A stretch of 64,000 bases of DNA, from NCBI GenBank assembly GCA_027262695.1, contig GCA_027262695.1_4722.1; one strand, given 5' to 3'. This document shows, one piece after another, positions 13,571 to 57,446 of the stretch. Positions within the stretch are counted from its first letter, which is position 1. Each line of letters starts with the position of its first letter. A program made the translations under genes and the position numbers. The notes below the pieces were generated by a model, which had not been told where the DNA came from, made no database searches, and worked only from the letters and a program-made list of their open reading frames with translations. The stretch is from a phage.

Positions 13571-13602
13571 CCCTCCTCCAACCCGTAAGGGAAGGAGGAG
13601 GG
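13571..13602. terminator. bidirectional hairpin CCCTCCTCC-AACCCGTAAGGGAA-GGAGGAGGG
   Basis: Perfect 9-bp outer stem with inner CCC/GGG and GTAA loop between convergent genes. Confidence 0.6.
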
Positions 13603-14676: not shown

Positions 14677-14715
14677 CACGTCCTCCTGAAAAAGAAAAAA
14701 GAAATACGGCATAAA

Positions 14716-17229: not shown

Positions 17230-17927
17230 TCTCCAGTATTACCCGTTAGCATCTGCGCGTCAGGCGACGTTGCCATTTTCTTCTCGTACTCTTTGGTTTG
17301 TTTGAAGACCAACTCACCGATTTCTTCCAGTTCTTCAACGGTGACGGTATGCAAATAGAGTAGCGGAATAATCCAGGTGTTCGCATTAAGCATGTCGCGG
17401 ATATCATCAACGGATGGGAGTTCGGTAAAGAACTGTTCATCAACTGCGAATAAATCCCGTGCGATGCCGTCAACGAGTTTGTGATTGCTTTCATGGATCC
17501 ATGCGAAACTTTCAGCAAGATGTTCCACGAGCATTTTAATATCATCGTCCGTTGAGAACACCGTACGACGAACATGCGTTGTAAGATCCATCGTGAATCC
17601 CATCAGCGAAGGGGTATCCTCAGAACGGAGTTCGCGCCACAAACGAAGCATGTTTTCAGGGATAAACAAATCATGGATAAAGGTGACACTGAACTTCGTC
17701 ACCCAATCTCGAATCGTCGCGCCTTTCGAATACTGTTGCGGCGGGGAATACAAATACACCCAGCGTTTTGTATACGCGATGACTTCCTTTCGCATCATCG
17801 CATCTAAAACAAGCACATAACGATCGGAAGCAAGTTCTTCCAATAAAAGCTCGAACGCCGTATCGCTTTCTGGAGAGAACGATCGTTTGATCTCTGCAAT
17901 ACGTCGTGATAACGAACTACGTAGCAT
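17226..17927 (-). CDS. hypothetical protein
   Basis: 233-aa ORF in operon. Confidence 0.55.
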   Translation of the reverse strand: MLRSSLSRRIAEIKRSFSPESDTAFELLLEELASDRYVLVLDAMMRKEVIAYTKRWVYLYSPPQQYSKGATIRDWVTKFSVTFIHDLFIPENMLRLWRELRSEDTPSLMGFTMDLTTHVRRTVFSTDDDIKMLVEHLAESFAWIHESNHKLVDGIARDLFAVDEQFFTELPSVDDIRDMLNANTWIIPLLYLHTVTVEELEEIGELVFKQTKEYEKKMATSPDAQMLTGNTGE

Positions 17928-17929
17928 GA

Positions 17930-18604
17930 TTAACCCTCGTCGAGATTATTCTGGAGATGCATTGCGGTGAGAATAACGCCAACTGCTGAAACCGATTTTG
18001 CTTTACTGTCTTCCGGAAGCTGTTCCAGACTTACCGTACCGGTTTCTAACAACATGCGGTTCATCGCGTTGAACTTCTTATCGTCACCACCACGCGCCTG
18101 CATCAACTCTCGGTTTACGTTCGGCATCGACCGTCCTAACGTCGCCTGCATTTCTGGCTGGCTCCACGTTGAGCCTTTACTGCCACCCGTCGGCTGGTTG
18201 GTCAACTGGTCTTTGGTGTTGTTGTTTTTCGGGATCGATATTTTAGCACTCAACGTTTCGGCTTGTCGGCGGTTTGGAATCAGGTACAATCTGGTTGGGC
18301 GGTCACGAAGCACCAATTGCCCTGTTTTCTGGTCGGTGAGATAAATGCGCTGGAAGAAGGGGAAACCGTATTTCTTACCAACTTCCAACGCACGTTTTAT
18401 CGTCACCTCGTTTTTGTTCATGTTGGGTACCCAGATGGGTAGAATCTCTTTCTTATCCCGACATAAACGCATATAGGCATCAAACGTCTCATCATCGATT
18501 TCAGCAAAACGTTTTTTGTAAATAGCGTAAGTCGGGCTAGATTCACCCACCAGGTCTTTGATATACCCAAGAATGAATTTTTCTGCTGCAGCGCGGTTGG
18601 ACAT
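17930..18604 (-). CDS. hypothetical protein
   Basis: 224-aa ORF in operon. Confidence 0.55.
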   Translation of the reverse strand: MSNRAAAEKFILGYIKDLVGESSPTYAIYKKRFAEIDDETFDAYMRLCRDKKEILPIWVPNMNKNEVTIKRALEVGKKYGFPFFQRIYLTDQKTGQLVLRDRPTRLYLIPNRRQAETLSAKISIPKNNNTKDQLTNQPTGGSKGSTWSQPEMQATLGRSMPNVNRELMQARGGDDKKFNAMNRMLLETGTVSLEQLPEDSKAKSVSAVGVILTAMHLQNNLDEG

Positions 18605-26418: not shown

Positions 26419-26450
26419 CCCTCCTCCAACCCGTAAGGGAAGGAGGAGGG
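26419..26450. terminator. hairpin CCCTCCTCC-AACCCGTAAGGGAA-GGAGGAGGG followed by TATGCCGT and A12
   Basis: Same hairpin family as 13571; motif at 26452-26459. Confidence 0.6.
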
Positions 26451-26521
26451 CTATGCCGTAAAGCAAAAAAAAAAAATGATAGTCACGAGCCCTCCAATGA
26501 AGGAGAGCCGTGACCGTCAGT

Positions 26522-28996: not shown

Positions 28997-29098
28997 AATG
29001 TTGGATTAAGTTAAATACCGCAACCGCAGCTAATTTTATAGGCTTTTAGCCTAAACCAATCATCTTCGGAATCATCATCTTTGAAACAGGAATCTATC

Positions 29099-29920
29099 AT
29101 GGAAAAAGTATTTGTTTGTAAGTTGTTTACCAACGGCAATAGCCAACCAATGTATCTGACCGATCCTGTTCTAGGTAATCGGAACAGTACCGTATTCAAA
29201 GAGGCTTTCGAATACGCTAAAAATAAAGCCGTGAGAACACTGACGTCTGATGACTGTATCGACGGTATCACGTGGGCAGAGTTAATCGGTGATGCCGTTC
29301 GACACTTCGTTCGGGATGCGAGAAAACGGGAAATCTGTCTCACGACTATTGTTGTGCGTGAAAACGCAGAAATTTTATCAAACGTTTTGGTTGATTTTAA
29401 TGACGTTTGCGTGTTTAATCCAGAGAACACGTTTGAACAATACCTTACTGCCCTGAACAACCAGCTCGGTAAAGATATTCATCCCGAATTCGCCAAGTTA
29501 ACGTATCAAGTGCTTTTTAACGACGTCGATCCAAACACAAAGATCAACACCAGCTTATCGCCCCTGGTAAAGAAATACGGATCGGTTCTTGCTACGGCAA
29601 CACCCACCACCGATGGCGGTTATGATATCGAATTGGATGGTCCATTAAAAGAACAAGAACCTACTGGGATTCGGGCGGTACATCACAACCTCGTCGTTAA
29701 ATCTGATGGATGCGATGAACATTACGCTATGATAAACGATGAAAACAATTACCGTTTAAGTCAAGCGATTGGTGTTCTACGCTATACCGAACCCACTGTT
29801 GTAGACGATTATACATCGACAACAACACACACCACGTGTTTCATTTTCATCTATCCCAATGAAAGTGTATACATTACCGACTGCTATGGCAATACCGTAG
29901 ATAGCTTACGTCGTTATTAA
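29099..29920 (+). CDS. hypothetical protein
   Basis: ORF track 29081..29920 (TTG); ATG 29099 preferred. Confidence 0.5.
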   Translation: MEKVFVCKLFTNGNSQPMYLTDPVLGNRNSTVFKEAFEYAKNKAVRTLTSDDCIDGITWAELIGDAVRHFVRDARKREICLTTIVVRENAEILSNVLVDFNDVCVFNPENTFEQYLTALNNQLGKDIHPEFAKLTYQVLFNDVDPNTKINTSLSPLVKKYGSVLATATPTTDGGYDIELDGPLKEQEPTGIRAVHHNLVVKSDGCDEHYAMINDENNYRLSQAIGVLRYTEPTVVDDYTSTTTHTTCFIFIYPNESVYITDCYGNTVDSLRRY

Positions 29921-29926
29921 TCATCA

Positions 29927-29948
29927 AGCCTGTCCTTCGGGGCAGGCT
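29927..29948 (+). terminator. hairpin AGCCTGTCC-ttcg-GGGCAGGCT followed by TTTTATGCCGTTAAA
   Basis: Stem-loop 6 nt after stop of 29099..29920; T-run then TATGCCGT motif. Confidence 0.6.
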
Positions 29949-30022
29949 TTTATGCCGTTAAATAACTGGAATAAGAATTAACAAAATAGGAAAATGGTGT
30001 GAATATAACACAAAGGAGGGAG

Positions 30023-30145
30023 ATGATTATGTTACTCATTCTAATGGAGAGAGCATTGCTGGCGGGTATCTGCGCATTCTCTGTTAAACACGCTGTTACT
30101 ATCATGACTGAAGAAAGGCGTAATACGCATAATGTATTACGCTGA
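30023..30145 (+). CDS. small hydrophobic peptide (40 aa), not in ORF track
   Basis: AAGGAGGGAG immediately upstream of ATG 30023; MIMLLILMERALLAGICAFSVKHAVTIMTEERRNTHNVLR; stop TGA 5 nt before ATG of next gene. Confidence 0.45.
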   Translation: MIMLLILMERALLAGICAFSVKHAVTIMTEERRNTHNVLR

Positions 30146-30150
30146 AAACA

Positions 30151-30564
30151 ATGTCTGCATTAGTGTATGACGAGAAATCGTCGAGGCCCCCGTCTTCACG
30201 AGGGCCAACACCTATGCATGATTATTCATCGTCTGTTAAACAAAAGGTTATAAACATGAGCAATTTGAACGTTGAATTTACTTCAACAACGCCTGTCATG
30301 AATGGTGTTGGCACTGAAACCAAAATCGTATTAGAACCCATTCCAGGGTTACGCGATCTCGGTGATTTTTATCAACTGATGCCGCGTATACGGAAGGCCT
30401 TAAACAGTATCGATCTTGATTCTAATAAAGATTTCCAACACGATACAGAAAATACCGATCATGTATTGCTGCCATCAGGGATCGCAAAATTCACCTACAC
30501 GCAAACATTGAAAGCCTCCGATGGTGAAATCCGTCGTTTTATCGTTGAAGTAGAAAGCGCATAA
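30151..30564 (+). CDS. hypothetical protein
   Basis: 137-aa ORF; no SD at 30151 but possible coupling to upstream small ORF; alternative start ATG 30256. Confidence 0.45.
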   Translation: MSALVYDEKSSRPPSSRGPTPMHDYSSSVKQKVINMSNLNVEFTSTTPVMNGVGTETKIVLEPIPGLRDLGDFYQLMPRIRKALNSIDLDSNKDFQHDTENTDHVLLPSGIAKFTYTQTLKASDGEIRRFIVEVESA

Positions 30565-30568
30565 AAAC

Positions 30569-30600
30569 CATCCTCCCGACCCGTAAGGGAAGGGAGGATG
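30569..30600. terminator. hairpin CATCCTCCC-GACCCGTAAGGGAA-GGGAGGATG followed by TATGCCGTTAAA
   Basis: Same family as 13571/26419; motif at 30604-30611. Confidence 0.6.
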
Positions 30601-30617
30601 AAATATGCCGTTAAACG

Positions 30618-31259
30618 TTATTCAACAAACCCTGCATTCAACAGATTGTCGTAAACACGATTAGCGACATCAACAGGAGAATGTGTGTTACTGGTATCTA
30701 TACGCAGCGTTTTCGCGTCGCCGAGATAGTCCATAAAATCCATGTAACGATAACGTCGTTTATTGAATGTCGCTTCATCGATGTTATCAAACATCTGATG
30801 TTTAGCGTGACGAACACGGAACCGCCTTAAATACGTAGGATAGTCGATATCCAGATAAACATAGTAAGACGGCATGATAATCGACGGTAGGTTCGGCAAC
30901 AATGCGTCAAACAACTTAACGTTGGCATCATTAACCTGATAAACATACGTCGAAGCAATCGAACGATCGCTAAGCACAGTCTTCCCTTCGTTAAGGGCTG
31001 GATGAATCACCTTGTTGAAGAGATGATTACGTTGCGACATCATCGCCAATAGTTCAGTTTCTGGATCGAATCTGTTCGTTGGTGTCTGATCTTCCAGGAT
31101 AAGTTTACGAATGGCTTCTCCGTAGAGCGTACCACCGGGTTCACGTACGACACAGACGTTGTTTAAACGACTGTGTAAAGACGAGATAACCGAACTCTTT
31201 CCTGAATAATCCAGACCTTCAATAACGATATATTTATTACGAGACATTCCCCGCTCCAA
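30618..31259 (-). CDS. tmk: thymidylate kinase (dTMP kinase)
   Basis: KYIVIEGLDYSGKSS P-loop and REPGGT motif match the Tmk pattern; 213 aa. Confidence 0.85.
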   Translation of the reverse strand: MERGMSRNKYIVIEGLDYSGKSSVISSLHSRLNNVCVVREPGGTLYGEAIRKLILEDQTPTNRFDPETELLAMMSQRNHLFNKVIHPALNEGKTVLSDRSIASTYVYQVNDANVKLFDALLPNLPSIIMPSYYVYLDIDYPTYLRRFRVRHAKHQMFDNIDEATFNKRRYRYMDFMDYLGDAKTLRIDTSNTHSPVDVANRVYDNLLNAGFVE

Positions 31260-31263
31260 TTAA

Positions 31264-32490
31264 CTACTTCGTTTTCGCCGTTATCGGCTGCGATACTGTA
31301 ATCTCGACCCGATCGACATCGGTACGTTTAACGATGATAAGGCTGCGTTCATCACCGAATGGTTCTGAGATCTTACAAGCCTCTTTAAGATTTTCGAGAA
31401 TCGTGCCATGGGGTTCAAACACCGCAAAACCGGAACTAGCGTCGATTCTTATTAAATATACACGCACATTGTTTACGGTAATGGTGTCATCCGTCTTGAA
31501 CCCACAGCAGGAGGGTAGACAGAACTGACCATTAACGCAATTAGCTAAGTATGCCTCACCACCGAACATTTCTATTAACGTCACCGGTTTAAATGTTTTC
31601 TCTGGGAAAGCATTATTAAGAATATCGTTTCCATTCACAAACCAGATCGTTACTTTATCTTCGGAATACGCTAGTCTGTATGGTTGGGTTGCGGACGCCT
31701 GCGCTTTATGCTGGTTAAATAACTTTGATTTTGTCGCAATCACAGCACGACCTTGGGCGTCAAAGTACAGAACTTCATACCCAACACATCCGATAAACAC
31801 GCGACGGTTATTAAGTTCCGGAATTCTGACTACTAACGCATTACCATCTTCCGTCGGTGTAATACCACGTAGGATGATAGATTCGTTGTTCAATGTTGAG
31901 TTGCTCACGATGACGCTTCGCATTACCGCTGGCGACACTATTTCATCTGCTGCAGGTTCAAGTTGCTCAGCTGTTACAGTCACGGATCTGTCTTCCTTTT
32001 CAACTGGCCAGTTGAAAAGGATTGTTTTATTAAGACAAACAATTGGGGTAATTTCGCCGATACTCCGTATCTTGACTGAGGGGCAATTGCACACATACGG
32101 AACAAAAACATCAATATCGTTGGTCGCTTCTTCAAGCATGCTAGCATACGCCATTGCTTCGGGACGATCGGTGAGATGAATAACAGCATAGACGATATCG
32201 TCTTTTAACCACGCACGTTTCACTCGTCCTATAACACGATTGATGTCTACAATAACTCTCTGAGCTTTCATCTCCCATTTTACTGCATCAGTACCACCCG
32301 CAACCACGTTCGGTTTATCCGTGTTTACACGATGAAGGAAACTATTGATTATTTCCTCATCGATCTGGATATCCTTTCTCGCAAAATTCAACAACGGAAT
32401 AACGAACTCATTGTTACCGCACTTCTCTGCTCCGCGAATGATAGGAGTACACTTCTTGTTCTCATCTGATCCCCAGATAACTTTAGTCAT
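31264..32490 (-). CDS. hypothetical protein
   Basis: ORF track 31264..32517 (GTG); ATG 32490 with AAGGA upstream preferred. Confidence 0.5.
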   Translation of the reverse strand: MTKVIWGSDENKKCTPIIRGAEKCGNNEFVIPLLNFARKDIQIDEEIINSFLHRVNTDKPNVVAGGTDAVKWEMKAQRVIVDINRVIGRVKRAWLKDDIVYAVIHLTDRPEAMAYASMLEEATNDIDVFVPYVCNCPSVKIRSIGEITPIVCLNKTILFNWPVEKEDRSVTVTAEQLEPAADEIVSPAVMRSVIVSNSTLNNESIILRGITPTEDGNALVVRIPELNNRRVFIGCVGYEVLYFDAQGRAVIATKSKLFNQHKAQASATQPYRLAYSEDKVTIWFVNGNDILNNAFPEKTFKPVTLIEMFGGEAYLANCVNGQFCLPSCCGFKTDDTITVNNVRVYLIRIDASSGFAVFEPHGTILENLKEACKISEPFGDERSLIIVKRTDVDRVEITVSQPITAKTK

Positions 32491-32523
32491 TTTCTGTTTC
32501 CTTCTTGGGTTTTGCACAAGTTT

Positions 32524-37650: not shown

Positions 37651-37684
37651 CCTCCTTCCCCGGCCTGATGGCTAGGGAAGGAGG
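37651..37684. terminator. bidirectional hairpin CCTCCTTCCC...GGGAAGGAGG
   Basis: 10-bp stem between convergent genes. Confidence 0.55.
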
Positions 37685-37699
37685 ATTATGGTTTATTTA

Positions 37700-41599: not shown

Positions 41600-41644
41600 T
41601 TTAGATCTCTCTTTGTTATCGGTAAAATAAATAACGGCATAAAT

Positions 41645-44535: not shown

Positions 44536-44566
44536 CCCTCCTCCAACCCGGAAGGGAAGGAGGAGG
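44536..44566 (-). terminator. hairpin CCCTCCTCC-AACCCGGAAGGGAA-GGAGGAGG
   Basis: Same family as 13571; after stop of 44585..45478; followed on minus strand by TTATGTTCGTATTTT. Confidence 0.6.
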
Positions 44567-56499: not shown

Positions 56500-56531
56500 C
56501 CCTCCTCCAACCCATCAGGGAAGGAGGAGGG
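56500..56531. terminator. hairpin CCCTCCTCC-AACCCATCAGGGAA-GGAGGAGGG followed by TATGCCGT
   Basis: Same family; motif at 56534-56541. Confidence 0.6.
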
Positions 56532-56540
56532 CATATGCCG

Positions 56541-57446
56541 TCAGGCTACGTATAACGTTAGATAACCTTCAATGAGGGTGTTCATTACACTGAGTTGGAG
56601 AACGACAGCTTTACTAACATCCGTACGCACCCCGAACGGTAGCGTTTTGAAGTGCTCTGGATCCGTAATAACTTTCGCGTTTTGTAGGTTAAGCGATCCT
56701 GGTATCGCTGACAATACCCAACGATCGTTAACCGTCAGACCAACGATCTCTTCAGAAAGTCCTAACTTCAGAGTGTTCATTTCTGCAATCAGGGCTTCTG
56801 AATGCGCATCGCCCGATGTTAACGTGTAACCATCGGTTAACGCCGTCAACACCGCATCCGATACGAACCAGTTGTACGATACGATCGCACCTGGTAGCTT
56901 ATCGCTATCCCGATCGATGATGTAGTTAAGACCAGCTAACATGTTGTTACGGATGAGGTTGTTCAGGTCGTTATGACCTGATGTCAACTCAACAAGCAGT
57001 TGACCGACCCAGACTTGGTTACCGGGTTTCGGTGTTATTACAACCTGTATCGGCTGTCGGGATTTGTCCAGATCAGCATCAACGATTTCGGTTTTATTCA
57101 GCAGGATACCGTACGTTGAGGCTAAGACAGGCAATACCTCAGAAACCTTGGTCAGTGTATCTAAGGTTTCGATTTCTATCGGCCAACGATGTTGCCCACC
57201 AGACCAAATACCGAGTTTGCTAAGATCGATACGGTTGTAATAGATGTCGACGGAGTTCACGAGCCCGGAACCCGGTTGTGGGTGCACGGTCAACATACTG
57301 TTGCGTTTGTATCCCGTGCTTTCAGAAGCCTCACCGATAACCAGCTTATCCAGCGTCACACCCCGAGCATCGAAATCGCTATGTTTTCGAATCAGTCGGA
57401 AGAGAATTTCCTTTGATTCTAGCCCCAGGATTTCACTGTACTCCAT
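56541..57446 (-). CDS. structural-region paralog family member C
   Basis: DIYYNRIDL, LASTYGILL, QVWVGQLLV. Confidence 0.55.
   Translation of the reverse strand: MEYSEILGLESKEILFRLIRKHSDFDARGVTLDKLVIGEASESTGYKRNSMLTVHPQPGSGLVNSVDIYYNRIDLSKLGIWSGGQHRWPIEIETLDTLTKVSEVLPVLASTYGILLNKTEIVDADLDKSRQPIQVVITPKPGNQVWVGQLLVELTSGHNDLNNLIRNNMLAGLNYIIDRDSDKLPGAIVSYNWFVSDAVLTALTDGYTLTSGDAHSEALIAEMNTLKLGLSEEIVGLTVNDRWVLSAIPGSLNLQNAKVITDPEHFKTLPFGVRTDVSKAVVLQLSVMNTLIEGYLTLYVA

Follow-up and report, generated by a model that had tools for sequence, protein, structure and literature searches.

In phage lambda, S105 and S107 are the paradigm of a holin and an antiholin produced from two starts, whereas the type I toxin peptides are represented by Hok, Ldr, TisB and Ibs. 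Conserved-sequence terminators have been reported for phiKZ and 201phi2-1. The closest described counterpart of the locus that we studied is found in Escherichia phage vB_EcoM_Goslar, whose gp006 (HOV27_gp006, YP_009820691.1) occupies the same place between gp005 and gp007 and has the same length, Shine-Dalgarno (SD) sequence and stop codon. The window (the whole stretch of 64,000 nucleotides of phage DNA that was analysed) differs from Goslar gp006 by two Ala/Thr replacements, and at 30151 it reads ATG instead of the CTG of Goslar. At the nucleotide level, positions 29000 to 31300 of the window share 96.7% identity with Goslar (NC_048170), whose position 1 corresponds approximately to window position 26421, and the sequence assigns the window to a jumbo phage of the Goslar type, a nucleus-forming E. 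coli phage of the Chimalliviridae. The small open reading frame (ORF) at 30023-30145, which the preliminary description had called unannotated, was absent only from the ORF track available to that reader: it is the coding sequence HOV27_gp006 in the RefSeq record NC_048170, the gene callers recovered it on all public contigs looked up, and its peptide matches YP_009820691 with 95% identity (38-40 aa, E=5e-17). Judged by these matches, the ORF is already known as the ortholog of Goslar gp006, a hypothetical protein of 38 aa, and gp006 goes unmentioned in the Goslar literature text that was searched. The features of the locus are, in window coordinates:

Upstream, minus strand: gp004 (RefSeq NC_048170 annotation).
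29099-29920, plus strand: gp005 (RefSeq), followed by an annotated terminator.
29926-29949, plus strand: gp005 terminator hairpin AAGCCTGTCC-TTCG-GGGCAGGCTT, present in the Goslar annotation and in our hairpin scan, followed by a T and then TATGCCGT.
29951-29958, plus strand: TATGCCGT motif, directly after the gp005 terminator.
14706-14713 (minus), 26452-26459 (plus), 29951-29958 (plus), 30604-30611 (plus), 41634-41641 (minus) and 56534-56541 (plus): the copies of the TATGCCGT motif.
30013-30022, plus strand: SD sequence AAGGAGGGAG, with the 7-nt core AAGGAGG.
30023-30025, plus strand: first ATG, 3 nt past AGGAGG, probably not the main start.
30029-30145, plus strand: coding sequence of the gp006 ortholog, 38 aa (MLLILMERALLAGICAFSVKHAVTIMTEERRNTHNVLR) and a TGA stop, as in RefSeq and the public contigs.
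30117-30143, plus strand: 11-bp hairpin GGCGUAAUACG-CAUAA-UGUAUUACGCU, from folds, spanning codons 32-40 (numbered for the 40-codon ORF, of which they are the last nine) and the first base of the stop.
30153-30217: non-coding, near-invariant block that contains nested dyads and the TATG motifs of 30166 and 30213.
30256-30564, plus strand: gp007 ortholog, 102 aa from the RefSeq start, the next gene after gp006.
Downstream of gp007, minus strand: gp008, thymidylate kinase (tmk; RefSeq).

This order is kept in Goslar and at the related loci, where gp006 comes after the gp005 terminator and before gp007 and tmk; on contig L010, gp006 and gp007 are kept, gp005 is uncalled and about 700 nt are absent. 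gp005 is fast-evolving, with weak PHROG matches (phrog_17697 and phrog_1453) and a faint similarity of its C-terminus to the goF mRNA metabolism modulator. On the other side of the locus, the homolog of Goslar gp009 (minus strand, 31264-32517, hypothetical) has an N-terminal half that is hypervariable among four Goslar-like genomes (31900-32500, with 45-79 variable columns per 100 and fewer than 10 in the flanks), which suggests a diversifying or recombining segment.

The signals around the gp005 terminator (3 variable sites in 31 nt) were also considered as a possible origin of the gp006 transcript. Each of the six exact copies of the TATGCCGT octamer in the window sits 1-3 nt past a GC-rich hairpin, and from this context the motif could either belong to the signature of the terminators or mark TATG-type starts right behind them, the copy at 29951-29958 then being the start of the gp006 transcript; such starts would resemble the late promoter of phiKZ, which consists of TATG with the G as +1 (PMC4666361). 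TATG placed after a hairpin shows a modest enrichment in the window (21 cases, as against 11 +/- 3 after shuffling), in what looks like a signature of terminators; for the reverse order, with the hairpin after TATG, there is no enrichment (3 cases, with a mean of 6 after shuffling). A scan for sigma-70 promoters stayed below shuffle expectation, and the TATAAC(AC) near the gp006 SD has no consistent context at its other copies. Near-identical bidirectional hairpins (CCCTCCTCCAACCCGTAAGGGAAGGAGGAGGG) with CATA...TATG flanks occur at ~13571-13602, 26419-26450, 44536-44566 and 56500-56531, with related copies at 30569-30599 and 37651-37685; by analogy, this family probably represents conserved-sequence terminators like those of phiKZ and 201phi2-1.

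Nine peptide variants of gp006 were found in Goslar-like phages, each of 38 aa and with 89-95% identity, and metagenome contigs carry rare variants such as L5P and C17R. A phmmer search of 1.84 billion representatives returned only the gp006 cluster itself and three repetitive false positives, Goslar was the sole match by tblastn in 50,697 phage records, a scan of GTDB genomes gave 0 matches, and Pfam, PHROGs and NCBIfam held no family match even at E-values up to 1-10. In these searches, neither homologs nor families nor context provided a functional lead. gp005 and gp007 are likewise clade-restricted, and conservation tests are therefore confined to the Goslar-like clade. As a gene, gp006 is of little significance, being annotated as hypothetical and present in one narrow clade. 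What the analysis provides is the first evolutionary evidence for the reality of this 38-codon annotation, along with corrections of its start site and of its relationship to gp007.

The ORF, its peptide and its SD sequence are as the preliminary description had given them: AAGGAGGGAG lies at 30013-30022, ATG at 30023-30025 and TGA at 30143-30145, and translation from ATG 30023 yields MIMLLILMERALLAGICAFSVKHAVTIMTEERRNTHNVLR. The SD, which had been called near-perfect, is indeed that of a very strong ribosome-binding site. Among the 37 Goslar genes checked, typical SD cores are of 4-5 nt and lie 5-10 nt ahead of the start, and the 7-nt length of the gp006 core is matched only by GAGGTGA of gp026; the AGGAG core is present in 19/19 genomes (it reads AGAGGAGAGAG in L009). 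Nevertheless, AGGAGG occurs 33 times in the window, mostly within the CCCTCCTCC...GGAGGAGGG family of terminator hairpins, which therefore create false signals of an SD with a mini-ORF, and three other copies also precede an ATG or GTG with an ORF of 31-37 codons. Because such combinations recur, an SD and a short ORF are, taken alone, within chance; what raises this ORF above chance is that it is intact and of the same length in 19/19 genomes and that its substitutions are codon-periodic.

Selection on the frame was assessed over 30032-30119 in 11 genomes sampled regardless of their peptide sequence, namely the window, 3 genomes found via gp005 and 7 metagenome contigs that contain, unchanged, the invariant 30-mer of positions 30120-30149. 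The 18 substitution events, which come from a shallow clade, divide into 13 synonymous and 5 non-synonymous in the gp006 frame, where 33% synonymous would be expected under neutrality (binomial P=0.0008 for the synonymous excess; omega about 0.19-0.2), and they fall 4/2/12 on codon positions 1/2/3. The remaining plus-strand frames give synonymous to non-synonymous ratios of 3:15 and 2:16. All five replacements are conservative (A/T twice, M/I, R/K and H/R). Furthermore, the SD, the spacer and the upstream region accumulate 25-28 events per 100 sites, a neutral-type rate, and constraint stops at the gp006 start codon; that the signal ends there argues for a real coding gene. Conservation in related phages, by which the preliminary description had proposed to judge the ORF, leaves it unrefuted, as the frame is intact and of equal length in all 19 distinct related genomes. 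With purifying selection (13:5), a conserved frame and a very strong ribosome-binding site, the comparison identifies gp006 as a real, selectively maintained small protein-coding gene.

The start codon, on the other hand, has to be revised. ATG 30023 had been taken as the start, and a second in-frame ATG is found at 30029-30031. This second ATG sits 9 nt past AGGAGG, a spacing typical of Goslar genes, and varies to GTG only, whereas the first lies 3 nt past AGGAGG and is followed by a codon (codon 2, 30026-30028) that encodes I, T or N, plus one synonymous change. Because of this variation and of the two spacings, ATG 30029 is the likelier main start, giving 38 aa, and RefSeq agrees. Just 5' of the gp006 SD there is also a mini-ORF, ATG GTG TGA at 29995-30003, preceded by AGGAAA and probably meaningless.

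AlphaFold2, run on the alignment of variants, models gp006 as one continuous helix from residue 2 to residue 37 (mean pLDDT 81), with a pLDDT above 90 across the first 20 residues. The preliminary description had proposed a hydrophobic N-terminus with a basic tail: the hydrophobic helix and a mildly basic C-terminal tail (EERRNTHNVLR) are borne out, but the hydrophobic part is interrupted by Glu-Arg (residues 9-10 of the 40-codon reading). The transmembrane (TM) prediction, which had been suggested as a check, is accordingly mixed. The best 19-residue Kyte-Doolittle mean is 2.13, above the classical threshold of 1.6, whereas on the Hessa scale the free energies add up to about +1 kcal/mol, a marginal value that is due to E7/R8 (38-aa numbering); the hydrophobic moment is low. 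Lys-His follows 11 residues past Glu-Arg, and a TM window shifted towards the C-terminus would enclose K20/H21. The tryptic peptides of gp006 are MLLILMER, ALLAGICAFSVK, HAVAIMAEER and NTHNVLR. According to these models, gp006 most likely takes the form of a helix that crosses the membrane once, its mildly basic tail lying in the cytoplasm.

Taken together, we consider it probable, with a good deal of room for doubt, that the gp006 ortholog is a genuine translated 38-aa gene, specific to Goslar-like chimalliviruses, whose product would be a small membrane peptide made of one helix. Translation would start mainly at ATG 30029, and the product would be a single continuous alpha-helix of which the N-terminal ~20-27 residues insert in the host inner membrane as a single pass, N-out/C-in, so that the tail EERRNTHNVLR would then be cytoplasmic. 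gp006 could in this way serve as an accessory membrane peptide that oligomerises or binds a host or phage membrane protein, and it would act outside any canonical lysis cassette.

The relationship of gp006 to the next gene differs from what had been suggested, namely translational coupling to a gene beginning at ATG 30151. This ATG does lie 5 nt past the stop of the ORF and opens a 137-aa ORF in the window, but it is present in 6/19 genomes, the codon being CTG, TTG or GGG in 13/19, and of the 18 genomes that span the frame 30151-30256, 9 have it interrupted by a frameshift or a stop. The RefSeq start of gp007 is the equivalent of 30256, after a 110-nt spacer, and over the first 21 codons from there (to 30318) the events at codon positions 1/2/3 are 0/0/13. 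From these comparisons, gp006 is expressed independently of gp007 and without translational coupling. In the window and in L004, L011 and L012, ATG 30151 is open and in frame with gp007, to which it would add an N-terminal extension of 35 aa; because the start is missing or the frame broken in most genomes, this extension would be a lineage-specific accident. A -1 shift of ribosomes out of gp006 to the 30151 frame was rejected on the sequence: there is no slippery site, and the frame opens only at 30133 and is broken in half of the genomes. As for the product of gp007, a mass spectrometry study of Goslar gives ~250 copies per virion (bioRxiv 10.64898/2026.04.21.720040), by which gp007 is an abundant virion-associated protein. 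gp006 is absent from the examined part of the virion table of the same study (bioRxiv 10.64898/2026.04.21.720040), which argues only against its being a virion component.

More unusual than the ORF itself are the hairpin at its 3' end and the block that follows it. Zero changes were found at 30120-30150 in 12 genomes, none of which had been chosen on that stretch, and the two changes at the base of the stem, G30117A and C30119T, keep the pairing of the plus-strand RNA through A-U and G-U. The block at 30153-30217 shows 3 events in 65 sites, compared with 43 in 67 nearby neutral-type sites (Fisher p=6e-14), and no codon periodicity. It contains the perfect dyads GACGA-GAAA-TCGTC, GGCCCCCGT-CTTC-ACGAGGGCC and TGCAT...ATGCA, and the region folds with z-scores of -4.1 (plus strand) and -6.1 (minus strand). 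The 65-nt block is a single-copy, clade-specific element, with no repeat or paralog in the window or in Goslar; Rfam gave no match at E up to 1 over 29000-31000, and a tRNA/tmRNA scan found none. No two-sided changes were seen among the pairs of the hairpin and block, 30 of 36 being invariant, and this lack of compensatory covariation arises because almost nothing varies. An RNA structure in the hairpin and block is plausible from their sequence, and possible roles of the block would be those of a promoter or operator of gp007, a stabiliser of a 5' leader, a processing site, or an antisense RNA or sRNA. More likely, the 3' hairpin of gp006 and the block serve at the RNA or DNA level, either in the 3' end and stability of the transcript or as the promoter or leader of gp007. 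The analysis thereby also points to an unusually constrained non-coding element just 5' of the gene of an abundant virion protein, in a model nucleus-forming phage.

One alternative to a functional peptide follows from this arrangement. gp006 could be a regulatory leader peptide (uORF), for which the act of translation matters and not the peptide itself: ribosomes arriving at the stop would melt the 30117-30143 hairpin, and thereby alter the termination, processing or folding of a block that controls gp007. The very strong SD of gp006, a stop codon within the last base pair of the conserved 11-bp hairpin, the near-invariance of the block downstream and the weak SD of gp007 (AAGG) would all be in keeping with such a mechanism. 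However, purifying selection on the amino acids extends along the whole body of the ORF, and not just near the hairpin, the gap to gp007 is of 110 nt, the hairpin has no U-tract after it, and no alternative terminator/antiterminator pairing was identified. We thus regard a leader peptide as rather unlikely. We give a similarly low credence to a more novel proposal, according to which 30117-30217 would act in Goslar-like chimalliviruses as a cis-regulatory RNA or operator of a kind not described before, setting the expression of gp007, possibly via the translation of gp006, or else gp006 would be a membrane peptide peculiar to chimalliviruses, with the host membrane or the early-infection vesicle as its target.

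A role in lysis timing, as a holin, an antiholin or a pinholin-like peptide, possibly through a dual start at Met1 and Met3, is suggested by the small hydrophobic helix with its charged C-terminal tail and by the two in-frame starts two codons apart. The neighbourhood speaks against it: the neighbours of gp006 are gp005, gp007 and thymidylate kinase, with no lysis cassette, and the endolysin gp024 (Goslar 17700-18335) lies ~14 kb away without any cassette link, which leaves a holin role unsupported. Within its 38 aa the peptide itself offers a single marginal TM segment; its second residue, being I, T or N, is never charged; only 3 nt separate AGGAGG from the first ATG; and Pfam, PHROGs and NCBIfam contain no holin family that matches. 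We conclude that a holin or antiholin role of gp006 is unlikely, and distinctly so.

It could also be asked whether the ORF is spurious, that is, whether the segment is a non-coding leader or intergenic RNA in which an ORF and an SD coincide. Coincidental AGGAGG and short ORFs exist elsewhere in the window, inside terminator hairpins, gp006 has no relatives beyond the Goslar clade, and a first count of substitutions, made on one contig per peptide variant (L008-L015), looked neutral, with 9 synonymous and 17 non-synonymous changes and flat codon positions. This count was rejected for its biased sampling: variants that differ only by synonymous changes collapse into one protein entry, and the neutral appearance is therefore an ascertainment artefact. 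Since the unbiased set gives 13:5 with a clear 3-periodicity in the gp006 frame, and the ORF is intact in 19/19 genomes, we hold a spurious ORF to be quite improbable. More generally, for tiny ORFs the collection of homologs via clusters of distinct proteins inflates dN/dS, a methodological caution that applies beyond this locus.

A further reading, very unlikely in our view, makes gp006 a peptide of the type I toxin kind, held in check by an antisense RNA; this RNA would arise from the minus strand of the conserved block and end at the hairpin. The size and hydrophobicity of gp006 are typical of such toxins, the minus strand of 30110-30262 is the one that folds better (z = -6.1), and on that strand CTTTCTTC comes after the hairpin 30142-30118, which the scan marked as terminator-like. 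Against this, a scan of the region found no promoter-like site on the minus strand, the would-be promoter region (30218-30255) is the most variable stretch, the one-sided changes in the stem keep G-U pairing on the plus strand only, and NCBIfam and the other family searches returned no toxin family. Finally, the idea that the real gene is a minus-strand antisense ORF (30105..29950, 46-51 aa) is hardly credible: its frame stays open over 46 codons in every genome and shows 9 synonymous to 5 non-synonymous changes across its overlap with gp006, but it mimics the signal because its third codon positions are common with those of gp006, its stop position is variable, its ATG has no SD (upstream is GCCTTTCTTCAGTC), and beyond the gp006 body (29968-30031; 21 codons) it gives 2 synonymous to 10 non-synonymous changes without periodicity, from which it follows that the constraint belongs to the plus-strand ORF.

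Set against known systems, gp006 resembles phage holins and antiholins in its hydrophobic helix, charged C-terminus and two close in-frame starts, and differs from them in being much shorter, in having one marginal TM segment and in not lying beside an endolysin or spanin gene; unlike in S105/S107, no charged residue separates the two starts, and there is no family match. With the type I toxins of 20-50 aa (Hok, Ldr, TisB, Ibs) it has in common its hydrophobicity and its position beside a structured, conserved, RNA-like sequence, but it is encoded in the genome of a lytic jumbo phage and has no HMM match, and its antisense RNA is hypothetical. The small single-helix membrane proteins of fewer than 50 aa (surveyed in PMC10903887) differ from gp006 by its Glu-Arg interruption and by the lack of sequence kinship between gp006 and any described family; gp006 is nevertheless like them in its similar size and single predicted helix, and also in its hydrophobic N-terminal part, its short charged tail and its strong ribosome-binding site.
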